Shown here in pieces: positions 6,941 to 32,000 of a stretch of 32,000 nucleotides of DNA (position 1 is the stretch's first letter; every line of letters starts with the position of its first letter). Position numbers and translations under genes: made by a program. The stretch covers positions 8,101 through 40,100 of the forward strand of contig NZ_LWLG01000019.1 in assembly GCF_001652585.1 (NCBI RefSeq), written 5' to 3'. Below the pieces are notes generated by a model. It was given only the letters and a program-made list of their open reading frames with translations, was not told where the DNA came from and made no database searches. Source of the DNA: Thermosulfurimonas dismutans. GTDB lineage: Bacteria; Desulfobacterota; Thermodesulfobacteria; Thermodesulfobacteriales; Thermodesulfobacteriaceae.

Positions 6941-8221
6941 TCAAGTAAGGTCTATTAAGTATTTGTTAACGAATCTTTCGATCTGCTTTTTGAGATCTTC
7001 CCGGTAGCGTTTGCTATAACCTCCCACGATAACCCGAGAGCCCTTTTCGTGAGGTCTAATATAGACCCAAATTACCCGGTGGGTGAAAAAGAAAGCTGCA
7101 AAAATACCAAGGATCATTAATAGAAAACCTATCCATACCAGGATAGCGCCAGGATCCTTTCTCACCTGAAGTCCGGTCATAAAAATGGGCTTGGCTTCCA
7201 ACATCGAAAGAGAAATCTTATGGGGAGAAAAGGAGAGCTCCTGCCGATGGCCTTCAATCAACCAAATCATCTGGGGTTCATGCCCTTCCTTGGTTATCCA
7301 GACCTTGGCCATCCGGAAACCGTGTGCCTCTCCGTACTGGATCAGTCCAATAGTAAGGTCCTCTTCCTCCCAGCTTCCATCACGGAAAGGCTTAATCACT
7401 AAGTCTTTACTCTTGTTACCAATTTCAACCCTTATTTTAATAGCGGCATATTCTTGATAAGAAGATTGATAGAAACGGATTTTTTTATACTCCAAAGGAT
7501 GGTTTACCCTTATTAAATAGTTAAATGATTGGTTTCCATCTATAACGGTTACATGAGAACGATAATCCTTCGGCATGCCATTGGGATAAAATTCAATCTC
7601 GAACTTATCCAGTTTAATATAAAAGGGCAGAGAAATGTAACCCTTCTTTTGGAAAGGAAAAACCTTATTGCTCTTCTCTCCCTCAAGGATATTCATATAA
7701 CCTCGGTAGCCGTAAATAGCCCCAATTAGAGCTCCGATCACAATGACCAAAATGGATCCATGTACAAAATAGACCGAAAAATAGCTCCACCGGAAACGAT
7801 CTTTAACCCCCAAGAAACCCTCTTTAAGGGCCTTGATGTCAAACTCCTTTTCCAAGGAGCTTTTTAATTCCTCTGGGCTCTTAGAAGTAATAATTTCCTT
7901 ACGCATGGGCAACTTTTCAGGATCTATCGACCAAGGATCCCGACGATAGAGTCCTAGAGAAACCGGAAATCTCTTTGCGGAACAAAAGATGAGATTGAGC
8001 AAAAATACTGAAAGAAGTGCAATATACCACCAAGAATGATAAGCATCATAAAGCTGGAAAAAATTAATAATTTTGCCCCAGAAAGATCCATATTTGGCAA
8101 AGTAAAAACCGGGTTCCTTTCCTTGAGGAAGGATTGTTCCTAGAATAGAAGTTGTTGCCAGCGCCAAAAACAGGAAGATGGCCAGTCTGAGAGAGGAAAA
8201 AAAATCAACTATTTTTTTCAT
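6941..8221 (-). CDS. resB: cytochrome c biogenesis protein ResB/Ccs1 family
   Basis: I prefer the ATG at 8221. The resulting N-terminus [34 protein letters not shown] is the canonical ResB N-terminus. The protein also has a large soluble loop and C-terminal TM helices. The listed start at 8320 lies inside tatA. Confidence 0.7.
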
Positions 8222-17048: not shown

Positions 17049-17125
17049 CGGGACGTAGCTCAGCCTGGCAGAGCACTGGCTTCGGGAGTCAGGGGTCGCA
17101 GGTTCAAATCCTGCCGTCCCGACCA
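17049..17125 (+). tRNA. tRNA-Pro (anticodon CGG), CCA encoded
   Basis: I folded the cloverleaf by hand. The acceptor stem is CGGGACG/CGTCCCG and the D arm is GCTC...GAGC. The anticodon stem is CTGGC/GTCAG with loop TTCGGGA (anticodon CGG). The T arm is GCAGG-TTCAAAT-CCTGC, with discriminator A followed by CCA. Confidence 0.9.
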
Positions 17126-19316: not shown

Positions 19317-19535
19317 ATGCGAGCAGTTTTGTCGGTAAGCCTTCCCGAAAAGCTGGCCAGGGAGTTGGAGGCTTTCGCCAAGGAAACCGGCCGCAATAAA
19401 AGCGATATCGTACGAGAGTCTCTAACCCTTTATCTCTGGGAAGCCCGGTTCAAGCGTCTTAGAAAGCAGCTCAGGCCTTTCGCCAAAAAGGCTGGTTTGA
19501 TGACCGAGGAAGATGTTTTTGAGCAGATTTCATGA
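19317..19535 (+). CDS. ribbon-helix-helix (CopG-family) antitoxin
   Basis: I prefer the ATG at 19317 because GGAGGTGA lies upstream. MRAVLSVSLPEKLARELEAFAKETGRNKSDIVRESL fits the RHH beta-alpha-alpha pattern. Its stop overlaps the PIN gene start (ATGA). Confidence 0.7.
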   Translation: MRAVLSVSLPEKLARELEAFAKETGRNKSDIVRESLTLYLWEARFKRLRKQLRPFAKKAGLMTEEDVFEQIS

Positions 19536-19933
19536 GGGTAGTCTTCGATACAAATGTTTTGGTGGCGGCTTTTGTCACGGAAGGATTATGTTCTGTGTTA
19601 CTCGCCCGTGCTCGTCGAGGAGAATTTGATCTTTTCGTTTGCCCGAAGATTTTGGAAGAATTTGAAAGGATTCTATCGGAAAAGATAAAAGTTCCGCGAG
19701 CCCTGATTGAAGAAGCTTTAAGTATGATCTTGGAAGCCTCCGAGATGATACAGCCCACTAGAGCCATTCAAGGAGTTTGCCGCGACGAAGATGATGACCA
19801 GATCCTGGCCTGTGCCCTTTCAGCCGAAGCGGATTACCTCGTGAGCGGGGATAAAGATCTTTTGGAGATTGGTAGCTTTGGAAACCTTAAAATCGTCCCT
19901 CCGAGAGATTTTGAGGCCTTGTTTGAGGATTAA
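19532..19933 (+). CDS. PIN-domain toxin (VapC-like ribonuclease)
   Basis: 133 aa with the acidic PIN residues in VVFDTNVL, DEDDDQIL and SGDKDLL. It is translationally coupled to the upstream RHH gene. Confidence 0.8.
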   Translation: MRVVFDTNVLVAAFVTEGLCSVLLARARRGEFDLFVCPKILEEFERILSEKIKVPRALIEEALSMILEASEMIQPTRAIQGVCRDEDDDQILACALSAEADYLVSGDKDLLEIGSFGNLKIVPPRDFEALFED

Positions 19934-20041: not shown

Positions 20042-20320
20042 ATGATAATCCCAGAACCCGGCCAGATAGTAAGGGTAAGGAACCAGACCTTTTTAGTTCA
20101 AGATGTTCACCCCTACTCAAACCCTGAGGCCACCTTTCACAAAGTCACCCTTGAGTCCTTGGAGGATCACCGCTTAGGCACATCCCTTGAAGTTATTTGG
20201 GAGCTTGAAGTCTCTCCCCGGGTCGAAGACGTGATAAGTTTTCCCGACCTTTCGGCCTGGGACCCTCCGGAAAGATTGGCCTCGGGTAAAAATATTTTGG
20301 ATCTGGAGTGGAGATCATGA
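20042..20320 (+). CDS. 92-aa ORF resembling the extreme N-terminus of RM/defence-associated SNF2-type helicases; a possible truncated remnant
   Basis: [17 protein letters not shown]...[23 protein letters not shown]...WDPPERL....ILDLEW recalls the N-terminal domain that precedes the helicase core in such proteins. Here the ORF stops, and its TGA overlaps the hsdM ATG (ATGA). The assignment is by recollection only. Confidence 0.3.
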
Positions 20321-22773
20321 ATAACGGAAAAATCACCTTGAAACAGCTCGAAACACACCTGTTTAAAGCCGCCGATATCCTGAGAGGCAAGATGGATGCC
20401 TCTGAATATAAGGAATACATCTTCGGCATGTTGTTTCTAAAGCGAGTTTCCGATGTCTTTGAGGCCAAGCAGGAAGAACTCAAAGAAAAGTTTAAAGCCC
20501 AAGGCTTTTCGGACCAGGAAGTAGAAGAACTTATCGAAGACCCCAATTTATACGCTGAGACCTTTTTTGTCCCTGAAAGGGCAAGGTGGAAGAACATCCT
20601 AAAACTTAAAGAAGATGTGGGAAACCAGTTAAACAAGGCCCTTTCCGCTTTGGAAGAACACAATCCCGAACTGGAAGGCGTTTTGAGGCATATAGATTTC
20701 AATGCGGTTAAGGGAAAAACCCGCCTCAAAGATCAGCAACTGGTGGATTTGATCCACCACTTCAATAAATACAGGTTAAGAAACGAAGATTTTGAGTTCC
20801 CTGACTTACTGGGAGCGGCCTATGAGTATCTGATTAAAGAATTTGCGGACTCTGCGGGCAAAAAAGGCGGCGAGTTTTATACTCCTTCGCAAGTAGTGCG
20901 GTTAATGGTGAGGCTTGTAAAACCGCAGGAAGGTATGACGGTGTATGACCCAACTTGTGGTTCCGGAGGTTTCCTCATCCAGGCAAGGCAGTATGTGGAG
21001 GAGCAAGGGCAGGATCCGAGAAACCTGGCTCTCTACGGTCAGGAATTGAATGGAGTTACCTGGTCGATCTGCAAGATGAATATGATTCTGCATGATATTC
21101 CCGATGCCTATATAGAGAATGAAGATACCATTACCACTCCTATGTTTGTTGAAAATGGATACATAAAGCGCTTCGACAGGGTTTTGGCCAATCCTCCTTT
21201 TTCTCAGAACTATAGCAAAGCAAACATGCAATATCCTGAAAGGTTCAAGTATGGCTTCACTCCGGAAAATGGAAAAAAAGCCGACTTGATGTTTTTACAA
21301 CACATGATCGCCAGCCTTAAGGATGATGGCGTTATGGCCACCGTAATGCCTCACGGAGTTCTTTTCAGAGGGGGGCAGGAGAAGGCCATTAGAGAAGGAA
21401 TTGTAAAGGATGACCTGATTGAGGCCATAATAGGCCTTCCCCCAAAACTTTTCTATAACACGGGCATACCTGCCTGCATCATAGTGATAAACAAGAGAAA
21501 GCCACCCCATCTCAAAGGAAAAATTCTCTTTATAAATGCTGATCGGGAATACGGAGAGGGAAGAAACCAAAACTATCTTAGGCCTGAAGACATTGAGAAA
21601 ATTGTTACCGTCTTTGAGGAGAAAAAGGAAATTCCGAAGTATTCAAGACTTGTGGATCTCAAGGAAATTGAGGAAAACGATTTTAACCTGAATATAAGAA
21701 GATACGTTGACAACTCTCCGGATCCTGAGATTGAGGACGTCCACGCCCATCTTGTCGGTGGAGTGCCCAAAAGAGAAGTAGAAATCTACAAAAAACAGAT
21801 GGAGAAGTTCAGAATCGGCCCGGAGGTTTTATTAAAGGAGAAAGATGACCGGTATTTTGAATTCAAAGAGATAAGCGAAAAAAACAAAATAAGAGAGATA
21901 GTTGAAAATCACAGTGGAGTTAAAGGAGTAATCTCAGAGCATTTTGAAAGGCTTTCCGAATGGTGGGAGAAGGTAAAAAAGGAGATAGAGGGTTTTCACG
22001 GCGGGAGCAACCTCTGGGATTTCAGAAACAGGGCAATAGCTGATTTGAAAGAAAAGTTACTGCCTCTTGGCGTTCTGGATGAGTTTCAGATTGCTGGCGT
22101 ATTTGTCAACTGGTGGGAAGCCCTGCGATACGACTTTAAGACCATCATTTCCTCCGGCTGGAGTAAAAGGCTGATTGAAGACGACAGGATTAAGAAAAAA
22201 TTCTTTTCTCAAGATTTAGAGGAGATCGAAGAGCTAGAGAGCAGGATTGCAGAAGTTGAAGGCGAACTGAACGAACTTCTAGATGAAGTTGAGGACTGGG
22301 ATGAGGAAGAATACGGAAAGAAGACCGCCAGTAAAGTGAAGAATTACCTGAAACAGATCGCCAAAGATTTGCGAGCCACTTTGCAGGAATCCGCCCTTAG
22401 AGAAGCCTCAAAGTGGGAAAGTTTGATCCAAAAAATAGAAAAAAAAGAAAGAGAACTGAGAAAGATTAAAAGAGACCTGAGAACAAAGGAGCAAGAGCTT
22501 GAAGAGAAAATAAAGCACAAGCGAGAATCTTTAACCGAAGGAGAGGCGAAAGAACTGCTCCTTGAGAAGTTTTACGATTTGATAAGCCAGCAGTTAGAGA
22601 AGTATCTGAATGCTGAAAAGAAAGACCTGATTAAGATTTTTGAGAAGCTGTGGGACAAATACAGCGTTTCACTGGAACAGTGGAAGAAAGAGCGAGATGA
22701 GGAAGTGCGAAAGCTTGACGATTTTCTGATAAGGCTGGGGTACTATGGAATATCTGCAAAAACTAGGACTTAA
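20317..22773 (+). CDS. hsdM: type I restriction-modification system methyltransferase subunit HsdM (long form with a coiled-coil C-terminal extension)
   Basis: I prefer the ATG at 20317 because GGAGTGGAG lies upstream. It has an HsdM_N region ([33 protein letters not shown]), SAM motif I ([11 protein letters not shown]) and catalytic motif IV (NPPF in LANPPFSQ). The last ~300 aa are E/K-rich coiled coil. Confidence 0.9.
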
Positions 22774-22792
22774 TGAGAGGTAGATTAAGCTA

Positions 22793-22957
22793 ATGAAATT
22801 TGTAAAAGAAAACAAGGTTATAACCCTGTCCTCCGCAAAAAATTTGATACCTGATGTTTCGGACAAGACACTTTATAGAGACTTGCAGGAGTTGGTTAGA
22901 AAAAAGATACTAAAAGAAATTGGTGAAAAGAAGGGAAGAAAATATGTTCCTGCATAA
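22793..22957 (+). CDS. 54-aa winged-helix/HTH protein (Fic/AlbA_2-type C-terminal wHTH-like)
   Basis: This ORF is not in the track because it is shorter than 60 aa. It reads MKFVKENKVITLSSAKNLIPDVSDKTLYRDLQELVRKKILKEIGEKKGRKYVPA. The ...TLYRDLxELVxKxILxxxGxxKGxKY pattern is a common wHTH found at the C-terminus of Fic and AlbA_2 proteins. Confidence 0.45.
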   Translation: MKFVKENKVITLSSAKNLIPDVSDKTLYRDLQELVRKKILKEIGEKKGRKYVPA

Positions 22958-23052
22958 CAGGAATTTATCAGACATAACAACCATATTTTGGGCATTTATA
23001 TGAATGGAACAAAATAAGGTGATATAGTTTAATAAGAGGAGAGATAACCGAA

Positions 23053-23868
23053 ATGTACGAAGACTGTTTTTTGGCTTACCTGGACATACTGGGTTTTAAG
23101 GATAAAATAAAAGAGACAGAAATAAACCTAAAAGAATTAAAAACTTTAATTGAAGCTTTAAAAATAAATACGAAGTTCACACAATCAGGTGGAAAAAAGA
23201 CAACAGCTAGTGGGACGCTCGAAATACGGAGTTTCTTCTTTTCAGACAGTTTCCTTTTCATGATGAAAGCAAACAAAGAAAATCTACCACATCTCTTTCT
23301 TATTATCCGGTATCTGCAAGATAGACTTTGGGAATACAAACTGTGTTTAAGAGGTGCTATGGTAAAGGGGAAGATGTACTGGCCTAATATAAGAGAGAAC
23401 ATAATTTTAGGTCCTGCTATGATTAAAGCTTATAAGCTGGAGTCTGAAGTTGCAATATACCCAAGAATAATTGTAAGCGAAGATCTATACCGCTACATCA
23501 AAGATAAGAAAATTTCTGCATATCCTGTGTCCGAAGAGGGGGAATTAAAAGAATTTATCAAAAAAGACAAAGATGGCGTTTATTTTTTTGATATACTTAA
23601 TCCAAATATTTTGAGAAAAAAAGGAGAAAAGATAATTACGATAAATGAAAGAGAAAACATGATAGATAATGATACAAAATACGGGAAGTCTTTTAGTATT
23701 ACATGGAATTCATCTGAAGTTAGTAATTACGAGAATATCATAACTACAGTAAAAGAAATAGTCAAAAATAGTAAGGGAAATCAAAATCCGGTGGTTAAGC
23801 AAAAATATAGTTGGTTGTCGTACTATTTAGAAGAAGTACAAGAAAGAGAAAAGGAGGGCAAGAAATAA
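23053..23868 (+). CDS. hypothetical protein with class III nucleotidyl-cyclase / GGDEF-like palm motifs plus an unassigned C-terminal half
   Basis: 271 aa with AGGAG ~11 nt upstream. The motif order matches a cyclase homology domain: AYLD11ILGFK (cf. FxDIxGFT), FFFSD65SFLF (cf. IGDAYM), CLRGAMVKGKMYW (cf. RIGIHTGxV) and GPAMIKAYKLESEVAIYPRIIVSEDLY (cf. GDTVNxASRMESxGxPGxIxVSExTY). Calling it a CDS is safe. The fold call is a by-eye inference. Confidence 0.5.
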   Translation: MYEDCFLAYLDILGFKDKIKETEINLKELKTLIEALKINTKFTQSGGKKTTASGTLEIRSFFFSDSFLFMMKANKENLPHLFLIIRYLQDRLWEYKLCLRGAMVKGKMYWPNIRENIILGPAMIKAYKLESEVAIYPRIIVSEDLYRYIKDKKISAYPVSEEGELKEFIKKDKDGVYFFDILNPNILRKKGEKIITINERENMIDNDTKYGKSFSITWNSSEVSNYENIITTVKEIVKNSKGNQNPVVKQKYSWLSYYLEEVQEREKEGKK

Positions 23869-24019
23869 TAGATAACATTTCTGAGGATTGTTCAAAGAAA
23901 ATAGTGGCAAAAGAGCCGGTTTCTAGTATGAGATTGTAAAGTAATTGCACATATTGCATAATGATTACACATAAATTGCACAATGAATGTAATACTAAAA
24001 GAGCAAAAAGGGTATAAAA

Positions 24020-25312
24020 ATGCCTGAAGATGTAAAAGTGTCTGAGGAGTGGAGAAAAATACCATTGCTTGAAAAGTTAGCATTTATTAAAGGTAAAGCT
24101 CCAAGAAAATTTTACAATTTCAAAGAAAAAAATACAATAAGGTATTTAACCCCTGAATATTTGCGAGGGAGAAATCACGAAACTCTTTATTGCAACATTA
24201 ATGAAGCTGAGATAGTCAATGATGATGTAGTCCTACTATGGGATGGGTCTAATGCTGGTGAAATCTTCTTTGCAAAAGATGGAGCAATTGCTTCAACTAT
24301 GGCAAAAATTGAAATTGATGAAAAATTACATAAACGATTTTTCTACTACTACTTGAAATTCCATGAACCGATTTTCAAATATCAAATAAAGGGCTCAGGA
24401 ATTCCACACGTTGAAAAGGATATCTTTGGATTGCTGCCTAATACGTTCCCACCCCTCCCCGAACAACGCAAAATCGCCGAAATTCTTGAAACAGTTGATA
24501 ACGCCATAGAAAAGACGGACAGGATCATAGAGAAATACAAGCGAATCAAGCAGGGCTTGATGCAGGATTTGCTGACCAAAGGTATAGACGAAAACGGACA
24601 GATAAGAAGCGAAGAAACGCACAAGTTCAAGGATTCGCCCCTCGGCAGGATTCCGGAGGAGTGGGAGGTTGTGGAGTTAGATGAAGTGGCAGATATAAGA
24701 CTGAGTAATGTTGATAAAAAAATTAAGCCTAATGAGGTTACAGTTAAACTCTGCAACTATCTGGAAGTTTATCAAAATGAATACATAACTTCAACACTAA
24801 ACTTTATGAGAGGGACAATCACAAAAAACGAAAAAGGAAAATTTATGATTAATAAAGGCGATGTAATAATAACAAAAGATTCAGAAACGTTTGAAGATAT
24901 TGCCAAACCTACTTATATTAAGGATGAGATAAAGGATTTGGTATGTGGTTATCATCTTTGTTTACTAAAACCGTATACCAATTTGGTTAATGGGTTATAT
25001 TTGGCTAAGATTATAGGATTCCATCGAGTGAATAAACATTTCCAGAATTTAGCAAATGGAATTACGAGATTTGGTTTATCAAAAGACACCATTGCTAATG
25101 CTTTAATCCCTCTCCCACCACTCCCAGAACAAAAACGCATCGCCTCAATTCTCTCGCAAATAGACGAAACCATTGAAAAAGAGCAAAAATATAAAGAAAA
25201 ACTTGAAAGAATTAAGCGGGGACTGATGGAAGATTTACTTACGGGAACGATCAGAGTTAGCTCTTTAATTGAGGGGGGACCGGATGAAAATAAAAAGAAT
25301 ACATATCCATAA
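24020..25312 (+). CDS. hsdS: type I restriction-modification system specificity subunit HsdS
   Basis: 430 aa with two variable target-recognition domains. They are separated and followed by the conserved helices LPPLPEQRKIAEILETVDNAIEKTDRIIEKYKRIKQGLMQDLLT and LPPLPEQKRIASILSQIDETIEKEQKYKEKLERIKRGLMEDLLTG. Confidence 0.9.
   Translation: MPEDVKVSEEWRKIPLLEKLAFIKGKAPRKFYNFKEKNTIRYLTPEYLRGRNHETLYCNINEAEIVNDDVVLLWDGSNAGEIFFAKDGAIASTMAKIEIDEKLHKRFFYYYLKFHEPIFKYQIKGSGIPHVEKDIFGLLPNTFPPLPEQRKIAEILETVDNAIEKTDRIIEKYKRIKQGLMQDLLTKGIDENGQIRSEETHKFKDSPLGRIPEEWEVVELDEVADIRLSNVDKKIKPNEVTVKLCNYLEVYQNEYITSTLNFMRGTITKNEKGKFMINKGDVIITKDSETFEDIAKPTYIKDEIKDLVCGYHLCLLKPYTNLVNGLYLAKIIGFHRVNKHFQNLANGITRFGLSKDTIANALIPLPPLPEQKRIASILSQIDETIEKEQKYKEKLERIKRGLMEDLLTGTIRVSSLIEGGPDENKKNTYP
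25172..25246 (+). repeat. hsdS 3' conserved-helix segment, copy 1 of a direct repeat (partner 27134-27208)
   Basis: By-eye alignment shows a near-identical core, GAGCAAAAATAYAAAGAAAAACTTGAAAGAATTAAGC, with roughly 85% identity over ~75 nt. Confidence 0.75.
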
Positions 25313-27044
25313 TTTTCGTTCTATAAAGGATGTAAGTATTGAATTGGAGAATTACTCTCTACTTATTGGAGAAAATAATGCTGGGAAAACAAATATTATG
25401 AGGGCGTTAAGAGTTTTTTATGATGATTTGAAATATGATCCGAAAAAAGATTGGCCCAAATTTAATGATGTTAGTGATGACGAAGCATGGATAGAGATAA
25501 AATATTTAACTACGGATGAAGAACAAGCGCAATTAAAGAAGGAGTATAGGAGCAATGACAATATTTTGAAGGTGAGAAAAATTCTAAAGACCAATAAAGA
25601 ACCGTTCAAATCGAAAGTTAAAGCAAATCAAAGCAATATTTTCGCTTATGAGAATGAAACTTTATCGGAAAATTTCTTTTATGGAGCAAAGAATATATCT
25701 CAATCTAAATTAGGGACCATTATTTACATACCCGAAATAAGTAAAATTGAGGAATCCATCAAAATGACTGGACCTTCTCCTCTTAGGAATATACTGCATT
25801 TTGTAATTAAAAAAATAATAGAAAAAAGTGAGAGTTATGCATCTCTTAGATCTGCATTTGAAGATTTTAATAAAAATTTTAAGGAAGAGTCTATTGATGG
25901 AATTTCCCTTGCAAATTTAACAGAAGAAATAAACAAAGAACTTAAAGAATGGAATGTGAAATTTGGGTTAGATATAAATCCGATAAGAATAGATGATATC
26001 ATTGCAAAACTTGTCTCTCATTATATTGAGGATAGCCAATTAGATGATCAAAGATTAAGCATTGATTCTTTTGGGCAGGGATTGCAACGACACTTGATAT
26101 ATACACTTATAAAATTATCTACAAAATATACTGATACTCCGAAAACTGCAAAAAAGGATTTTTCTCCTGATTTCACGTTAATTTTATTTGAAGAACCAGA
26201 GGCTTTTTTACATCCTTCGCAACAAGAAAAATTAAATATCAGTTTAGCTAAATTGGCAGAAGATGAAAGTCAACAGATATTAATTACAACACATTCTCCT
26301 ATGTTTGTAAGCAAAAATATAAGCAATATTTCTTCTTTGATAAAAGTCAACAGAGATAAAGAAACAAAAACTTTTCAGATCAAAAAAGAAGAAATTGATT
26401 CTTTATACGATGAGAACACTTCTATGTTTCAATTTTTCTTAGATAAATTAAATTCTCAAGATATAGGTGACGAATTAAAACAAAAAATAAGAAAGAGAAA
26501 TCTGGCAAGAGAAACAGACAATGTGGAAATCAAATTGAAAGAAGAATCTTTTAAATATTTTCTGTGGCTTGATAGCGAGAGATCAAATCTATTTTTCGCT
26601 AAACATGTTGTTATTTGTGAAGGTGCTACGGAAAAAATATTTTTTGATTATTTGATAAATACAAAATGGTCCGATCTAAAAGACCGACATATTTATTTTT
26701 TGGATTCTATGGGGAAATTTAATGTTCATCGATATATGAACCTTTTTAACTTATTGGGGATTAACCATTCCGTATTAATAGACAGAGATAAAGATATAGA
26801 AATTCACGATCTAATAAATAGCTTCATAGAAGATAATAAAAATGAATTTACCTGCAAAATACATTATTTTGACCCTGATATAGAAGGTTTTTTAGGTATT
26901 GAAAAACCAAAAGATAGTAGACAGAAACCATTAAATATAATGGTTAAATACTCAGAAGGACAAATACCTGAATCTAAAATAAATGAATTGCGAGCTATTA
27001 TAGAAGGATTATTAAAGCATGACCAAAATGTACCGCAAGCTTGA
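25284..27044 (+). CDS. OLD-family nuclease (ABC-type ATPase fused to a TOPRIM domain)
   Basis: I prefer the ATG at 25284 because GAGGGGGGA lies upstream. The N-terminus is MKIKRIHIHNFRSIKD. It has Walker A (GENNAGKTN), Walker B/D-loop (LILFEEPEAFLHP), TTHSP, and TOPRIM motifs (VVICEGATEKIFF ... LIDRDKD). It overlaps the hsdS 3' end by 29 nt and terminates inside the hsdR-5' stub. Confidence 0.8.
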   Translation: MKIKRIHIHNFRSIKDVSIELENYSLLIGENNAGKTNIMRALRVFYDDLKYDPKKDWPKFNDVSDDEAWIEIKYLTTDEEQAQLKKEYRSNDNILKVRKILKTNKEPFKSKVKANQSNIFAYENETLSENFFYGAKNISQSKLGTIIYIPEISKIEESIKMTGPSPLRNILHFVIKKIIEKSESYASLRSAFEDFNKNFKEESIDGISLANLTEEINKELKEWNVKFGLDINPIRIDDIIAKLVSHYIEDSQLDDQRLSIDSFGQGLQRHLIYTLIKLSTKYTDTPKTAKKDFSPDFTLILFEEPEAFLHPSQQEKLNISLAKLAEDESQQILITTHSPMFVSKNISNISSLIKVNRDKETKTFQIKKEEIDSLYDENTSMFQFFLDKLNSQDIGDELKQKIRKRNLARETDNVEIKLKEESFKYFLWLDSERSNLFFAKHVVICEGATEKIFFDYLINTKWSDLKDRHIYFLDSMGKFNVHRYMNLFNLLGINHSVLIDRDKDIEIHDLINSFIEDNKNEFTCKIHYFDPDIEGFLGIEKPKDSRQKPLNIMVKYSEGQIPESKINELRAIIEGLLKHDQNVPQA

Positions 27045-27126
27045 CGAAAAACACTATGCGGAAAACCCCTTCCTGGCCCAGCTCAAGAAGCTCGGCTGGA
27101 AGATTTACAGGCAGAACAAAGACAAT
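27026..27126 (+). repeat. copy A of the hsdR 5'-end direct repeat (partner 27890-27990)
   Basis: Aligned by eye over 101 nt, I count about 10 mismatches (~90% identity). Both copies start at AAATGTACCGCAAGCTTGACGA. Confidence 0.85.
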
Positions 27127-27138
27127 AAGGGAAATTGA
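27028..27138 (+). pseudogene. vestigial hsdR 5' end (33 hsdR codons followed by a premature stop)
   Basis: It encodes [36 protein letters not shown]. The intact HsdR N-terminus is [36 protein letters not shown]... Confidence 0.75.
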
Positions 27139-27244
27139 AAAGGAGCAAAAATACAAAGAAAAACTTGAAAGAATTAAGCAAGGATTGATGGAGAATTTGT
27201 TGACTGGAAAGGTGAAAGTTAATCACCTGATTAAGGATGCTTAA
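27127..27244 (+). pseudogene. vestigial hsdS 3' end (C-terminal conserved helix only)
   Basis: It encodes ...REIEKEQKYKEKLERIKQGLMENLLTGKVKVNHLIKDA*, which parallels the HsdS C-terminus ETIEKEQKYKEKLERIKRGLMEDLLTG. It is out of frame with the hsdR stub. The track ORF 27041-27244 is a chimera of the two remnants. Confidence 0.75.
27134..27208 (+). repeat. hsdS 3' conserved-helix segment, copy 2 of a direct repeat (partner 25172-25246)
   Basis: See the copy 1 entry. Both copies have the same orientation. Confidence 0.75.
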
Positions 27245-27256
27245 GTAAAGAAAATT

Positions 27257-27553
27257 ATGAAAAGCCTCGAAGAAATAAGAAAATTTATAAAGAATCAAAA
27301 AAAAGAACTGGAGCAAAGATTCGGAATCAAAACGATCGGTATTTTCGGTTCTTATGCCAGAAATGAACAAACCGAAAAAAGCGATCTGGACGTTCTTATA
27401 GAATTTAAAGAAGGATATGAGACCTTCAGAAATTACATGCAGTTAAAATTTTATCTTGAAGATAATCTCGGAATGGAAGTTGACCTGGTTATAGCTTCTA
27501 CCTTAAAAGAAAGATTGAAACCTTATATAATGAAAGAAGTCTTATATGTCTAA
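27257..27553 (+). CDS. mntA: minimal nucleotidyltransferase antitoxin (MNT/MntA)
   Basis: 98 aa. [23 protein letters not shown] is the GS-x(10)-DxD pol-beta NTase signature. Confidence 0.85.
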
Positions 27554-27908
27554 GAAAAGAAGTTTAAAGCTTTACCTTGAAGATATTCTTGAAGAGATCC
27601 AACGAATTAAAAGATTTACCGAAGGAGTTGTCAACTATGAAGATTTTAAGAATAATGAGCTGTTATTGTACGCCGTTTTGAAATCTCTGGAAAATATTGG
27701 AGAAGCAGTTAAAAATATCCCCGAAGACAAAAGAAAGTTGTACCCTTTACCCTGGAGAGAAATAGCCGGAATGAGAGATATACTTATTCATGAATATTTT
27801 GGAATCAACACCAAAATTGTCTGGGATATTATAAAAACTGAATTGCCGGAACTTGAAAAGGCCATTGTTTTCTTGATTGAAAAGGTCGGAAATGTACCGC
27901 AAGCTTGA
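27546..27908 (+). CDS. hepT: HEPN-domain toxin (DUF86/HepT)
   Basis: 120 aa with the Rx4HxY motif in [11 protein letters not shown]. It overlaps mntA by 8 nt. Its last codons (NVPQA*) lie inside the hsdR 5' end. Confidence 0.85.
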
Positions 27909-27990
27909 CGAGGAACACTATGTAGAAAACCCCTTCCTTGCCCAACTTCAAAAGCTCGGCTGGAAGATTTACAGGCAGAACAAAGATAAT
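27890..27990 (+). repeat. copy B of the hsdR 5'-end direct repeat (the functional hsdR start)
   Basis: See the copy A entry at 27026-27126. Confidence 0.85.
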
Positions 27991-30900
27991 CCTGAAGAGG
28001 TCAGAGAAATCCTCTCCTTCAACCCCTCTTTTGAGCCCGTTTATGGTGGCTACGAAAAATTCAGAGAAAGTTTTAGAGAAGTAATCCTTGAGTATGTTCT
28101 GAAAGACTCGATAAAGAGAATAAACCCTTGGATCGAAGAAGACCAGATTAACGAGGTCGTAAGAAGAATCACCACGCCTACCGCAAACTCTCTCCTTGAG
28201 GCCAATAGAGAAATTCACGATCTTCTTTTAGAAAACACTTCGGTTTCTGAAAACAGAAAGACCGGAGAAAGAAGCCCCACCGTAAGATTTATTGACTTCG
28301 AGAACCCGGAAAACAATTCTTTTATAGCCATCTCGCAATTCAAGGTGAACATCCCCGGAACAGAGAAGCACATTATTCCGGACATCGTTCTTTTTGTAAA
28401 TGGCTTGCCTTTGGTAGTTGTGGAATGCAAATCTCCCGCTATAGCCGACCCGATGACAGAGGCCATTACCCAGCTCATGCGATACAGCAATCGGCGAGGC
28501 GAGAAGGAGGGGAACGAAAAGCTCTTCTGGTACAATCTCTTCATGGTGGCTACCTCCAAGCAGGTAGCCAAGTACGGCTCCATCACCGCGGGATACGAGC
28601 ACTTTGTGGAGTGGAAAGCCCCCTATCCCTTCAGTTTGTCAGATATAGACGAAAACAAGACCTCGATCACAAGTCAACAGGTTCTAATTCAGGGAATGCT
28701 CTCCAAAAATAACCTGCTGGATATTCTCCACACCTTCACCCTTTTCAAAGAGGATTCAAAAGGCGGAACCATAAAGGTCGTTCCGAGGTATCAACAGTTT
28801 AGAGCAGTTAAGAAGATCATAAAAAGGATAAAACAAGGCCAAACTCCGGCCGAAAGGGGAGGAATTGTCTGGCACACCCAGGGTTCAGGAAAATCTCTTA
28901 CCATGATGTTCACTGTAAGAGCAATGTATCACGATCCTGAACTTGCAAACTTCAAAGTAGTTTTTGTCACCGACAGAAGAGATCTGGAAAAGCAACTGAG
29001 AGAGACCTCAAAAAGTGTTGGCTACACGGTAAAGCTCGCCCATAACATAGAAAAACTCAAAGAATTGCTAAGAACGAACACACCTGATCTGGTTATGGGA
29101 ATGATCCATAAGTTTCAGGAAAGGGAACTTAAAAGAAAGTTTCCCGTGCTCAATGAATCTCCCGACATTCTAATAATGATTGATGAGGCTCACAGGACGC
29201 AGTACAAACTTTTGGGAGCCAACTTAAGAAAAGCCTTACCCAACGCCACCAAGATTGCTTTCACAGGCACGCCCATTGAAAAGACCGAAAAAACTTTCGG
29301 AGACTACATAGATAAGTACAGCATAAGGCAGGCGGTTGAGGATGGGGTAACCGTTGAAATTGTTTATGAAGGAAGGGTTCACAGTGCGGAACTTTCGGAT
29401 GAAGAGGCGGTGAATGCAAAGTTTGAAGACGTTTTCTCCATGCTTGACGCCGAGCAGAAGTCAAGGATCATGGGGAGATACACGTGGAGGGCTTATCTTG
29501 AGGACGAGAACGTCATCAGAGATAAAGCCAAAGATATGATTGACCATTATGTGAAACACGTTTTTCCTAACCGTTTCAAGGCTCAGGTGGTTGCGGTTTC
29601 AAGACTTGCGGCCATAAGGTACAAAAAAGCCCTGGAAGAGGCCTTGAAGGAGAAAATTGAAGAGCATGAAAGGGAAGGCTACCCGGATGAAGGTTTGAAA
29701 CTGCTCAAAAGATTAGAAGTGGCCACGGTTATATCTGCGGCGGCGAATGACCCTCCAGAGTATCGCCCCTACACTGACCCCAAAGAACATGAGAGGGTTA
29801 TTAAAAGCTTTAAACTTCCTTTTGACCAAACTGACGATAGCGGCCTTGAAGGAAATGTAGGCATTATTGTAGTAAATAATATGCTTATAACCGGTTTTGA
29901 TGCCCCACTGGAACAGGTAATGTATCTTGATAATGTAATAAAAGAACACAATTTGCTACAAGCAATTGCCAGAGTCAATAGAGTTTACCAGGGCAAAAGT
30001 TGTGGCTTTGTCGTTGATTACGTAGGGGTGCTTAAGCATCTTAGAGAAGCGCTAGCTATTTATGCGGATGAAGATATCGATGAAATAAGTCAAGTAGTTG
30101 TTAATAAAGCGAAAAGCGTTGATGAATTAAAATTCTGGCATACCCATCTTGACAGCTTCTTTGAAAAATTTGGTGTTGAGAACTGGAGAGAAAATATTGA
30201 CGAATGCATAGATATTCTTGTTGATGAAGAAGTTAGAGATGAATTTATAACTCTCGTCAGAAAATTTAATAATGCCGTAGATAAAGTGCTCCCGGATCCA
30301 GAAGCTCTAAAATATGTTACAGATTTGAAAATCATAAATTTCATTAAAGAATCCGCTAGAAATAGATATAGAGATGACAAGCTCAGTATAAGAGATGCAA
30401 GTAAAAAAATAAGAGAAATTGTCGAAGAATATCTTATTTCGAAGGGGGTTGACCCAAAGATTCCTCCTACTCCACTCTTTTCTGAGAGCTTTATACAAAA
30501 AGTTAAAAAGAAAAAATCGCCCAAAGCGAGAGCAGAGGAACTCAAGTATGCAATTATAGAACACATAGAGAAACACTATGAAGAAGATCCTGAATTTTAC
30601 GAAAGATTTTCAGATAGATTGAAAAGGATACTTGAGGAATACAAGGAGAATTGGGAATTGCTTGCTGTTGAGTTAGAAAAGCTTAGAAACGAGATGAAAA
30701 AGGGTAGAGAGGCAGAAGAAACATTTGGTTTTGATCCCAAGAAAGAAATGCCATTTTTTGGGTTACTCAAGCAGGAGATATATGGGAAAGATCCCATTGA
30801 AAAACTTGGAAAAGATGACATCGATTTACTTGTGAGTTTAACAAAAGATGTTGTTGAAATCATCAAAAAAGAGATTCAATATGTTGATTTTTGGGATAAT

Positions 30901-31107
30901 TACACCAAGCAAAAAAGATTGAAGGCCTACCTCATTTCTCATTTCCTGGGGGCTATCCAGCCAAACAAACCTTCCAAAACCCATGTTTTTAAGGTGAAGG
31001 AGGAACCGGCACCATATCTTACCACCCATAAGGGTCTACTGTTCAGAAAAAGGAACGAAATAGCTCAAAAATTGCTGGAACTCGCATATCATGTTTATGC
31101 GGGATGA
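27892..31107 (+). CDS. hsdR: type I restriction-modification system endonuclease/translocase subunit HsdR
   Basis: I prefer the ATG at 27892, since the track start at 27877 is a TTG. It has a PD-(D/E)xK nuclease motif ([18 protein letters not shown]), helicase motif I ([11 protein letters not shown]) and a DEAH box (MIDEAHRTQ). It also has later SF2 motifs ([19 protein letters not shown]) and a helical C-terminal domain. Confidence 0.92.
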
Positions 31108-31111
31108 TGAT

Positions 31112-31789
31112 ATGGAAACAGGAATCAAGATCGAAAAGATAATAAGATCAAGGAGGAAGACCGTCGCCCTCCAGATAACCGATGACGCAACTTTGATCGT
31201 TAGGGCGCCATTTGAAGTAAACGAACAAACCATAAAAAATATTGTGACCAGGCACCTAAATTGGATAAGGAAAAAGAGAGATGAGATTCTTTCGAGAGAT
31301 CCCAAGTTTGTTAAAAAGGAGTTTGTAAACGGGGAAGGCTTTCTTTATCTTGGCAAATATTACAGATTAACCATCGTTGACGGACAGAGTGAACCATTAG
31401 TGTTCAAAAACGGTTTCTTTCTTTCGAGAGCCTATCTACCAATCGCAAGAGAGGTTTTTGTTAATTGGTACAGAGAAAAGGCTTATGAAAAGATTGTAGA
31501 AAGGGTCGAATGGTACGCCAAAAAGAGAGGGTTCAGATACAATAGGATTAACATCACAAATGCACAAAAAAGATGGGGTTCTTGCTCGCCTAAAGGAAAC
31601 TTAAATTTCTCCTGGCGACTGATTATGGCTCCGTTACCGGTCATAGATTATGTTGTGGTTCATGAGCTTGTCCATCTCGAAGAGAAGACTCATACAAAAT
31701 CGTTCTGGAATAAAGTGAAAATGCTTATGCCAGATTATGAGAAACATCAAAATTGGTTAAAGAATAATGGCTATCTTTTGAGGTTATAG
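31112..31789 (+). CDS. DUF45/YgjP-like (M48-related) zinc metallopeptidase
   Basis: It has HELVHLEEKTH (HExxH), an RRKTVALQI N-terminal strand and WGSCSPKGNLNFSWRL. The start is uncertain: 31112 gives METGIKIE..., and 31091 or 31097 are alternatives that overlap the hsdR end. Confidence 0.8.
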   Translation: METGIKIEKIIRSRRKTVALQITDDATLIVRAPFEVNEQTIKNIVTRHLNWIRKKRDEILSRDPKFVKKEFVNGEGFLYLGKYYRLTIVDGQSEPLVFKNGFFLSRAYLPIAREVFVNWYREKAYEKIVERVEWYAKKRGFRYNRINITNAQKRWGSCSPKGNLNFSWRLIMAPLPVIDYVVVHELVHLEEKTHTKSFWNKVKMLMPDYEKHQNWLKNNGYLLRL

Positions 31790-31795
31790 TAAAAA

Positions 31796-32000
31796 ATGAT
31801 TAGAGACTCGTACAGTGCCCCCTCCAGGACGGCACAGGGTATAATCCAGGGAGGAGGGGAAAATGAGTACACCAGAACTAGAAGTCAAGCGCTGGCAGCC
31901 AAAAGGGGGAAGAGTTTAAGTGCCCTTATCAGGGAACAGCTTGAAGCCCTGATTCAGGAAAAAATGAATTTGATATCAAGACATCAACTCCAAAAACTCC
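31796..32000 (+). CDS. open-ended ORF containing an RHH-antitoxin-like helix pair; possibly frameshifted
   Basis: The frame is open from ATG 31796 to the window edge and contains ALAAKRGKSLSALIREQLEALI, the pattern of RHH helix A/B. The only strong SD (GGAGGAGGGG) serves a different-frame ATG at 31863, which gives an 18-aa peptide (MSTPELEVKRWQPKGGRV*) ending at 31919. Confidence 0.25.
   Translation, partial: MIRDSYSAPSRTAQGIIQGGGENEYTRTRSQALAAKRGKSLSALIREQLEALIQEKMNLISRHQLQKL

Follow-up and report, generated by a model that had tools for sequence, protein, structure and literature searches.

Genes embedded in type I restriction-modification operons, in BREX and in similar operons are now used for the discovery of anti-phage systems, and the entry, exchange and build-up of such embedded cargo have hardly been addressed so far. 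Embedded examples in type I operons include TgvAB in VPI-2 of Vibrio cholerae (PMC11411939); PrrC and the RloF of Campylobacter jejuni are cited as further ones both there and in preprint 10.1101/2024.01.29.577857; the same preprint, under the term "guilt by embedding", built phage-defence candidate (PDC) models from genes embedded in BREX, DISARM and type I systems, and a search of its text found that the words recombination, hotspot and exchange are not used. Arrays of orphan modules that form by displacement have been described for effector-immunity arrays of type VI secretion (T6SS) in V. cholerae and for the orphan toxin-immunity modules of Rhs and contact-dependent inhibition (CDI) systems (PMC5361080 and work cited there), and homology-facilitated illegitimate recombination is documented in transformable bacteria (de Vries & Wackernagel 2002 and Prudhomme 2002, as cited in PMC5361080) and in conjugation of Escherichia coli (PMC3240628). 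Here we analyzed a window of 32,000 nt (the whole stretch, positions 8,101 to 40,100 of contig NZ_LWLG01000019.1 of Thermosulfurimonas dismutans) in which a type I operon carries two cassettes of putative defence genes between hsdS and hsdR, parted by the head of an hsdR gene that is joined to the tail of an hsdS gene. This segment, 27024-27244, is very probably an inherited recombination scar that split the hsdS/hsdR site into two slots and whose hsdR stub was later used as a homology arm.

The locus is like the T6SS, Rhs and CDI arrays in that a new module would enter at a conserved upstream gene, which provides the homology anchor, and be joined illegitimately at its other end, while the older module moves downstream together with a piece of that conserved gene, so that close strains share the older module and differ in the newest. 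Unlike those arrays, this locus stacks unrelated defence genes and not toxin-immunity pairs, and does so in a type I operon; stubs of two flanking genes (hsdS and hsdR) are present, and the hsdR stub appears to have been reused as the right arm in later swaps. Four marks of a stacking scar are found here: partial copies of the flanking genes between the modules, single-module relatives whose similarity ends at the junction, a non-homologous join, and inheritance of the junction by related strains. As with TgvAB and other embedded systems, the cargo is flanked by hsd genes of the same strand, often encodes GmrSD-like proteins and, in the window MNT, matches PDC-S09; unlike the studies of embedded genes, which catalogue and test the cargo, the window presents exchange and stacking, with hsd gene ends as likely homology arms and a preserved scar. 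Homology-facilitated illegitimate recombination likewise integrates foreign DNA through one homologous anchor and one illegitimate join, and little homology may be seen at such joins, with the difference that the mechanism at our locus is deduced from sequence and that the near-identity of the stub suggests a very close partner or an in-place duplication. The target-recognition domains of hsdS reassort by recombination in the conserved central and C-terminal repeats, as in the type IC EcoR124/EcoDXXI family. On this reassortment see also preprint 10.1101/2022.09.01.506293. The left crossover of the slot-1 swap described below similarly falls at the conserved hsdS centre, with the second recognition domain changed together with the cargo; unlike in hsdS domain reassortment, the exchanged block of the window continues past hsdS through the embedded defence gene into the hsdR stub. 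Gene embedding in type I systems and the stacking process are already known; the setting is new, and the reuse of the stub as a homology arm is added.

The gene order assigned with Pfam and PADLOC is hsdM, hsdS, OLD nuclease, hsdR stub, 7-nt filler, hsdS stub, MNT, HepT, hsdR and YgjP, all on the + strand. The scar and the features on either side of it are as follows:

24020-25312, + strand: hsdS, full-length specificity subunit (Pfam Methylase_S in two stretches, 2.4e-39)
25172-25259, + strand: repeat A1, the tail of the intact hsdS, 88 nt, 83% identical to 27134-27221
25284-27044, + strand: OLD-family ATPase/TOPRIM nuclease gene, the slot-1 cargo (Pfam AAA_15 5.5e-34, OLD-like_TOPRIM 7e-17; PADLOC Old 7.6e-62)
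27028-27126, + strand: hsdR stub (B1), with a front part, 27028-27087 (codons 1-20), and a rear part, 27088-27126 (codons 21-33)
27127-27133, + strand: junction filler AAGGGAA
27134-27244, + strand: hsdS stub A2, the last 36 codons (IEKEQ...NHLIKDA) and stop, 83% identical to A1
27257-27553, + strand: MNT nucleotidyltransferase, the antitoxin-type gene of slot 2 (Pfam NTP_transf_2 5.2e-18; PADLOC candidate PDC-S09 7.6e-37)
27546-27908, + strand: HepT (HEPN), predicted ribonuclease toxin, slot 2 (Pfam HepT-like 1.1e-27)
27892-31107, + strand: hsdR, intact restriction subunit, with repeat B2 at 27890-27990 (Pfam HSDR_N 8.7e-43, SWI2_SNF2 3e-76, ResIII, T1RH-like_C; PADLOC REase_I 1.2e-145)

The scar is delimited by two direct repeats. 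Positions 27026-27126 and 27890-27990 align without gaps over 101 nt with 91/101 bases the same, and the best match of the 101-mer in 100 dinucleotide shuffles of the window had a mean of 45.5 and a maximum of 49, which bears out the copy of the hsdR 5' end, about 90% identical, that an earlier sequence-only reading of this DNA had pointed out. The homology starts at 27024 (AAATGTACC) and stops at 27126 with codon 33 (AAT), giving the 33-codon head and the encoded protein named in that reading; beyond codon 33 the stub frame reads KGN and a stop, so that its open reading frame (ORF) in the window has 36 amino acids. Within this repeat, 27088-27122 is a 35-nt block identical to 27952-27986. The second direct repeat pairs 27134-27221 with 25172-25259 (73/88 bases the same, 83%; shuffles at most 48), with a longest shared identical block of 25 nt. 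The hsdS tail seen by the earlier reading is therefore real, but it comprises 36 codons from the ATT at 27134 (the I of IEKEQ) rather than about 38, the additional codons counted there (RE) being filler. The filler AAGGGAA resembles neither the continuation of hsdR (CCTGAAGAG) nor the hsdS sequence 5' of the join (GACGAAACC) and is assignable to neither parent. An hsdR head is thus joined to an hsdS tail without shared homology, in keeping with the fossil junction and illegitimate right-hand joint proposed from the sequence; the out-of-frame fusion that went with that proposal holds for the window, where the hsdS tail frame differs from that of the hsdR stub, but it is strain-specific, as two of the sister assemblies carry it in frame.

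The same junction of hsdR stub and hsdS stub was identified in three assemblies from other samples that are 94-97% identical to the window: L098 (Logan SRR33151379), L099 (ENA ERZ23491094) and L100 (ENA ERZ27262687). In all three the filler is ACAGAA, of 6 nt. Stub and tail form one frame of 71 residues in L098 and L099, called as an ORF by the gene caller in L098, and extra 1-nt deletions break this frame in L100. Between the sister strains the hsdS stub is 91% identical, compared with 98.4% in MNT-HepT, with 1-nt insertions and deletions in runs of A; this faster divergence and these A-run changes are as expected of a pseudogene or relic. A search with the 71-residue fusion ORF identified no further fusions and only other truncated hsdR heads (L101, L102 and L103). 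In L101 (1-2815), a UPF0175 plus DUF3368 toxin-antitoxin pair occupies the hsdS/hsdR slot, and hsdR is cut after codon 37 by the opposite-strand DDE transposase gene of an insertion sequence, the remaining head having 97% protein identity to the window hsdR. In L102 (1486-2328) and L103 (2860-3970), the hsdR reading frame is lost to a frameshift or stop once 52 and 65 codons have been read, and resumes beyond it; these are either pseudogenes or sequencing errors.

Comparison with the sister strains indicates that the two slots have had different histories. Slot 1 holds OLD in the window, a 248-residue AbiJ-like protein (Pfam Abi_C, PADLOC AbiJ) in L098 and the end of a third gene in L100. From left to right, the identities of the window to L098 are:

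hsdS centre, 24524-24643: 93-98%
second recognition domain of hsdS: unrelated
hsdS tail: 85-92%
slot-1 cargo: unrelated
hsdR stub, 27028-27088: 80%
hsdR stub, 27089-27126: 100%
MNT and HepT: 98.4-98.5%

Against L100 the stub front (27028-27088) is 77% identical, and the 38 nt of 27089-27126 show 2 differences (95%); L099, which starts at 27103, has no difference from the window in this part. The contrast between the stub front and the sequence downstream is significant for both strains (Fisher p = 1e-5 for L098 and 5e-6 for L100). Since the stub is mosaic and strains that bear the junction differ in cargo, slot 1 was overwritten after the junction had formed, with crossovers inside the stub; and since identity drops after the hsdS centre and returns in the middle of the stub, the exchanged block runs from mid-hsdS to mid-stub. 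Such a block brought, by this comparison, a new half-specificity, an hsdS tail, cargo and a stub front together. Most likely, OLD and the stub front were imported later by homologous recombination and not by the event that formed the junction.

Both single-cassette arrangements from which the stacked form could be composed were found. Eight contigs from hydrothermal-vent and other metagenomes, reached through a search for MNT homologues (L090-L097), have the order hsdS-MNT-HepT-hsdR-YgjP, and the window is collinear with them at 86% identity for 4.67 kb, from exactly 27134 to 31804. Upstream of the equivalent of 27134 they continue inside a full hsdS (...CAGATAGACGAAACC), where the window has the filler and the hsdR stub. 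The window MNT has 87% amino acid identity to P0122 of the hsdS-MNT-HepT-hsdR loci, and the window hsdR has 92-93% to those of L090-L094. The other arrangement is that of L083 (GCA_054039815.1), reached through a search for OLD homologues, in which an OLD gene (P0002, 84% amino acid identity to that of the window) is followed by an intact hsdR that reads past codon 33 (NKDN-PEDTKEV...) to the contig end; window and L083 are collinear over 25284-27125 at 84.7% identity. At 2-439 of L083, 5' of OLD, lies an incomplete ORF of 146 residues that neither matches Pfam nor resembles hsdS and that may be a further cargo gene. A metagenome scan with OLD returned homologues at 55-70% identity, none of them adjoining this hsd family and two of them after N4/N6 DNA methylases: the OLD homologues of L076 (1353-3858) and L078 (1327-4813), 62-64% identical to that of the window, overlap and directly follow N4/N6-type DNA methyltransferase genes, an arrangement that suggests a frequent pairing of this OLD lineage with methylases in the manner of a restriction-modification module.

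That the hsdS/hsdR boundary is a site of repeated cargo entry was apparent from an HsdR scan with one genome per species, which gave 74 loci from thermophilic and other bacteria and from archaea; the start of hsdR is covered in about 57 of these, and hsdS can be seen along with hsdR in about 52. The boundary is empty in about 23 of the ~52, hsdS overlapping or abutting the hsdR start, and close relatives of this form have an hsdS that ends ...VRVNHLI.EG.ENVxxA and stop, with an overlap with the hsdR start of up to 17-20 nt. In about 29 of the ~52 it is occupied, by 84-5478 bp, and the limits of the cargo are constant: on the left just past the hsdS motif NHLIEE and on the right a few bases before the hsdR ATG. 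The window follows this pattern twice. The last 29 nt of hsdS overlap the OLD start, OLD ends ...QNVPQA and stop, with its last five codons read over the start of the hsdR stub, and HepT ends ...GNVPQA and stop, its last five codons being read over the real hsdR start; NVPQA and the stop appear in both places to be the kept last five codons of an ancestral hsdS with a 17-nt overlap with hsdR. The cargo in the scanned loci includes GmrSD-type restriction enzymes (eight loci), OLD/AAA_15 proteins (L034 and L071) and MNT with or without HepT (L001, L002, L016 and L051), and also ABC-3C components, AIPR, Schlafen/AlbA_2 ATPases, an NB-ARC/TPR protein, AAA_13, Mrr, NYN, 23S-IVP proteins and insertion-sequence genes. 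By their Old, PDC-S09 and HepT-like matches, the cargo genes of the window are likewise putative defence genes embedded among hsd genes of the same strand. None of the 74 loci was found to have an additional hsdR head or an additional terminal hsdS tail. The hsdS/hsdR site is a place to mine for new defence genes, and the locus keeps the intermediate states of a concrete and testable model of cargo exchange, in which hsd gene ends would be the homology arms and a rare illegitimate join would make a new slot: precise boundaries shared by bacteria and archaea, both single-cargo parents, the stacked form with its scar, and sister strains in which crossovers within the scar have turned over one slot and, with it, half of the hsdS specificity.

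Several other features were observed at this boundary. Two archaeal loci with a protein of the 23S-rRNA-IVP family in the slot (L070, ~1120-1180, and L073, ~2170-2228) have runs of a 7-nt unit (CATAACC, or variants such as CATAACT and ATAATT) immediately 5' of the hsdR start. The slot of L016 (7757-9791) contains a serine-resolvase gene with a MerR-type helix-turn-helix (HTH), followed by a 499-residue ORF with no Pfam match; this layout resembles an IS607-like element, so that mobile elements would also land in the slot. In L056 (6313-8216), L051 (3513-5219) and L062 (2560-4110), hsdS appears to be split or partly duplicated, as a partial and then a fuller copy or as halves ~450 nt apart, and these may be further recombination relics.

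The divergence between the repeat copies bears on where the stub came from. The 10 sites at which the window stub and the real hsdR head differ comprise 7 synonymous and 3 nonsynonymous ones, the ratio of nonsynonymous to synonymous rates (dN/dS) being 0.06, and for the hsdS tails A1 and A2 it is 0.11-0.12; random substitutions yield so few amino acid changes with P = 0.001-0.006. Identity between the copies is 90% for the hsdR heads and 83% for the hsdS tails (dS 0.6-1.4), and because this divergence is mostly synonymous they would have diverged within working genes in separate loci rather than by decay of a recent duplicate. At the end of the stub, the final 39 nt stand apart, with 38/39 bases the same as in the window hsdR head and full equality with an ancestral head reconstructed from those of L099 and the window; in other family members identity over these 39 nt reaches only 78-89%. 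Since the stub rear equals the reconstructed resident hsdR head, the original stub would have come from the same or a nearly identical hsdR allele. As to the partner in the forming event, then, the stub front is divergent but was replaced later, and the stub rear equals the resident head. As whole segments, the two hsdR heads of the window are 90% alike, compared with 85% or less to any of the 74 loci; a nearest-neighbour analysis of the four repeat copies against these loci was uninformative, the segments being short.

We therefore favor a history in two steps, set against the background of a widely transferred hsdM-hsdS-hsdR-YgjP family in which the few bases between hsdS tail and hsdR start are a hotspot for defence genes. 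In the first step, which is reconstructed, an ancestor would have undergone one illegitimate join of hsdR codon 33 to hsdS codon -36 with ~6 nt of filler, giving two tandem cassette slots parted by an hsdR-head stub and an hsdS-tail stub. The route that we favor for it is an unequal, homology-anchored exchange between two closely related alleles with different cargo, an allele exchange being preferred because it leaves only ~100-nt repeats and hence a stable product; homology-facilitated illegitimate recombination is rare next to the ordinary homologous kind, and a single scar in about 57 loci is consistent with this. In the second step, which the comparison of strains shows, slot 2 (MNT-HepT) and the junction have been inherited almost unchanged, and slot 1 has been overwritten at least twice by ordinary homologous recombination, with left crossovers in or after the conserved hsdS centre and right crossovers within the stub of hsdR. 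The OLD gene now in place most likely arrived from another locus of the family in one import with the initial ~60 nt of the stub and with the tail and the second recognition domain of hsdS. The stubs themselves are, judging from the broken frames in the window and the frameshifts in L100, non-coding relics, and the hsdR stub would act in effect as a landing pad, with slot 2 shielded from replacement. In principle, the identical blocks of 35 nt and 25 nt could let the locus collapse to either single-cassette form, a change that was not observed.

Several points weigh against this history. The forming event is a reconstruction, in which either side may have been the resident one. Gene conversion between the stub and the hsdR head within one genome could also make the stub rear look ancestral. 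At the join, a family-wide comparison of hsdS and hsdR found no shared run of at least 4 nt that could serve as microhomology, only the 6-7 nt of filler, and an imperfect patch, A.AGAC.A, a few bases upstream is not convincing as such. A donor with hsdS directly upstream of this OLD lineage was not found, L083 having the other ORF there. Finally, the sister contigs are short (732-2487 nt), slot 1 is complete only in L098, L100 shows just 50 nt of a different upstream gene, and the junction is known from assembled contigs.

The main alternative for the origin of the junction, possible but in our view doubtful, is an in-place tandem duplication of an 864-bp unit (hsdS tail, MNT, HepT and hsdR head), after which the upstream MNT-HepT was replaced by homologous recombination. 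It gives the topology exactly, bounded by hsdS codon -36 on one side and by hsdR codon 33 on the other; the part of the stub next to the junction equals the reconstructed resident head, as a duplication would have it, and the later replacement of slot 1 is established independently. A perfect 864-bp direct repeat would be unstable, though, and would have needed quick replacement, a second copy of MNT-HepT was not seen in any strain, and the original upstream hsdS tail, by which the identity of the tails at time zero would be judged, is not preserved. A recent tandem duplication as the sole explanation is rejected given that the copies are only 90% and 83% identical, with the dS values above, and near-identity is limited to the last 39 nt of the hsdR stub.

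A one-step import, which was the history put forward in the sequence-only reading, is improbable. By this account an hsdS-OLD-hsdR' segment of a clearly different type I locus entered an hsdS-MNT-HepT-hsdR locus, crossing over homologously on its left and being joined illegitimately on its right, and OLD and the whole stub date from that event. Both parental arrangements do exist (L090-L097 and L083), the copies diverge mostly at synonymous sites, the hsdM and hsdR of the window have different closest relatives, and there are documented cases of homology-facilitated illegitimate recombination, which has also been put forward for comparable stacking of modules (PMC5361080, PMC3240628). What speaks against it is that the sister strains have the junction but not OLD, that the stub front differs by 20-23% between strains while its rear is 95-100% identical, and that this rear agrees with the resident hsdR head at 38/39 sites, compared with 78-89% for other family members. 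Accordingly, the idea that OLD was spliced in by the event that made the junction is in need of revision, with L098 and L100 sharing the junction without OLD and having stub fronts only 77-80% identical, and so is the derivation of the segment from a different but related locus, the original stub appearing to come from the same or a nearly identical hsdR allele. The argument that divergence of the copies meant import and not a recent tandem duplication survives in part: dN/dS agrees with import of the diverged parts, but the stub rear is nearly identical to the resident hsdR. The donor search suggested along with it was likewise only partly successful, in that L083 supplies OLD followed by an intact hsdR and L090-L097 the other parent, but an hsdS directly before OLD was not found.

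It is very unlikely that the junction is a functional element, either a silent hsdS' for phase-variable specificity or an expressed small protein, HsdR(1-35)-HsdS(C-terminal 36), that regulates the restriction complex. An in-frame ORF of 71 residues in L098 and L099, picked by the gene caller in L098, and a stub whose start is still set as in hsdR, in overlap with the upstream gene's stop, would speak for it. The window is out of frame through its 7-nt filler, however, frameshifts and a stop interrupt the stub in L100, evolution of the hsdS stub is faster than that of the sequences next to it, and an Rfam search of 26500-28100 gave no match; a phase-variable hsdS shufflon in particular is rejected, as the hsdS stub consists of the conserved C-terminal helix only, lacks a target-recognition domain, lies in direct and not inverted orientation, and has no recombinase gene in the locus (Pfam). 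Hardly credible is an integron-like, site-specific insertion of cassettes with the duplicated flanks as recombination sites: many unrelated cargo genes do enter one narrow site, within about 20 nt, in many loci, but no integrase or other recombinase domain was found from hsdM to YgjP (Pfam), there are no inverted repeats at the cassette boundaries, the duplicated segments are ordinary hsdS and hsdR coding sequence of ~100 nt with the selection signatures of those genes, and the crossover points vary, on the right in the stub and on the left in hsdS. An integron-like cassette array was rejected on these grounds. A chimeric contig of two strain variants can practically be discounted, even though the relatives come from metagenomes in which coexisting variants with different cargo are evident, because the junction recurs in three other assemblies made from different samples with different assemblers, an assembler would meet no k-mer common to both sides of the join by which it could be misled, and the junction itself has diverged between strains (AAGGGAA versus ACAGAA), so that the assembly artefact that the earlier reading had raised as a possible objection is effectively refuted.

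Returning to the favored two-step history, a tentative extension of it is that stubs of hsdR and hsdS may be portable homology arms, making slots independent, with the outer slot turning over by ordinary homologous recombination and the inner one shielded, and allowing integron-like growth of embedded defence arrays without an integrase or specific sites in bacteria and archaea. If true, the use of stubs as homology arms could be a general route for the growth of such arrays in both domains.

The remaining genes of the operon are:

20308-22773, + strand: hsdM, type I methyltransferase subunit (Pfam N6_Mtase 1.5e-109, HsdM_N 2.7e-33)
22793-22957 and 23053-23868, + strand: two small genes without assigned function
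31091-31789, + strand: YgjP-like metallopeptidase gene, the conserved final gene of the type I family (Pfam YgjP-like 3.6e-59)

YgjP lies directly 3' of hsdR in nearly all of the related loci listed. The expected domains are all present in HsdM, HsdS (of which the central and C-terminal conserved regions align with relatives) and HsdR, and by domain content the locus is a type I restriction-modification system. The guanine-plus-cytosine (GC) content is 42-50% in hsdM and hsdR and about 30% over 22750-27850, with OLD at about 29%. A scan for promoters and terminators gave counts at background level, with no + strand terminator-like site inside the operon.

The genes around the operon are bacterial chromosomal ones (SppA, GuaB, PilC, a ClC channel, RmuC and tRNA-Pro). 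A tRNA-Pro(CGG) gene (17049-17125) and a PIN-family toxin gene (19532-19933) lie upstream of it, and the operon may be in an island adjoining the tRNA gene. The two small genes form a second embedded site between hsdM and hsdS (22793-23868), with a 54-residue ORF resembling a DeoR-type HTH and a 271-residue ORF that had no match in Pfam or PADLOC, both of ~30% GC. At the same place L094 has a 99-residue ORF with a weak HTH_DeoR match (E = 0.0047), and the gap between hsdM and hsdS is 0.7-1.4 kb in several relatives.

The C-terminal 250 amino acids of the window HsdM are 59% identical to those of L094 and 82% to those of L051, whereas the L094 hsdR is 93% identical to that of the window; with hsdM and hsdR closest to different relatives, the left and right parts of the locus have different histories. 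A further contrast was observed within hsdR. L067, a 1.7-kb contig of a Spirochaetes metagenome-assembled genome, encodes at 931-1747 protein that is 99.5-100% identical to the window HsdR C-terminus and the start of YgjP, and it is only 93% identical to the window over hsdR residues 575-881, which hints at a mosaic structure inside hsdR.

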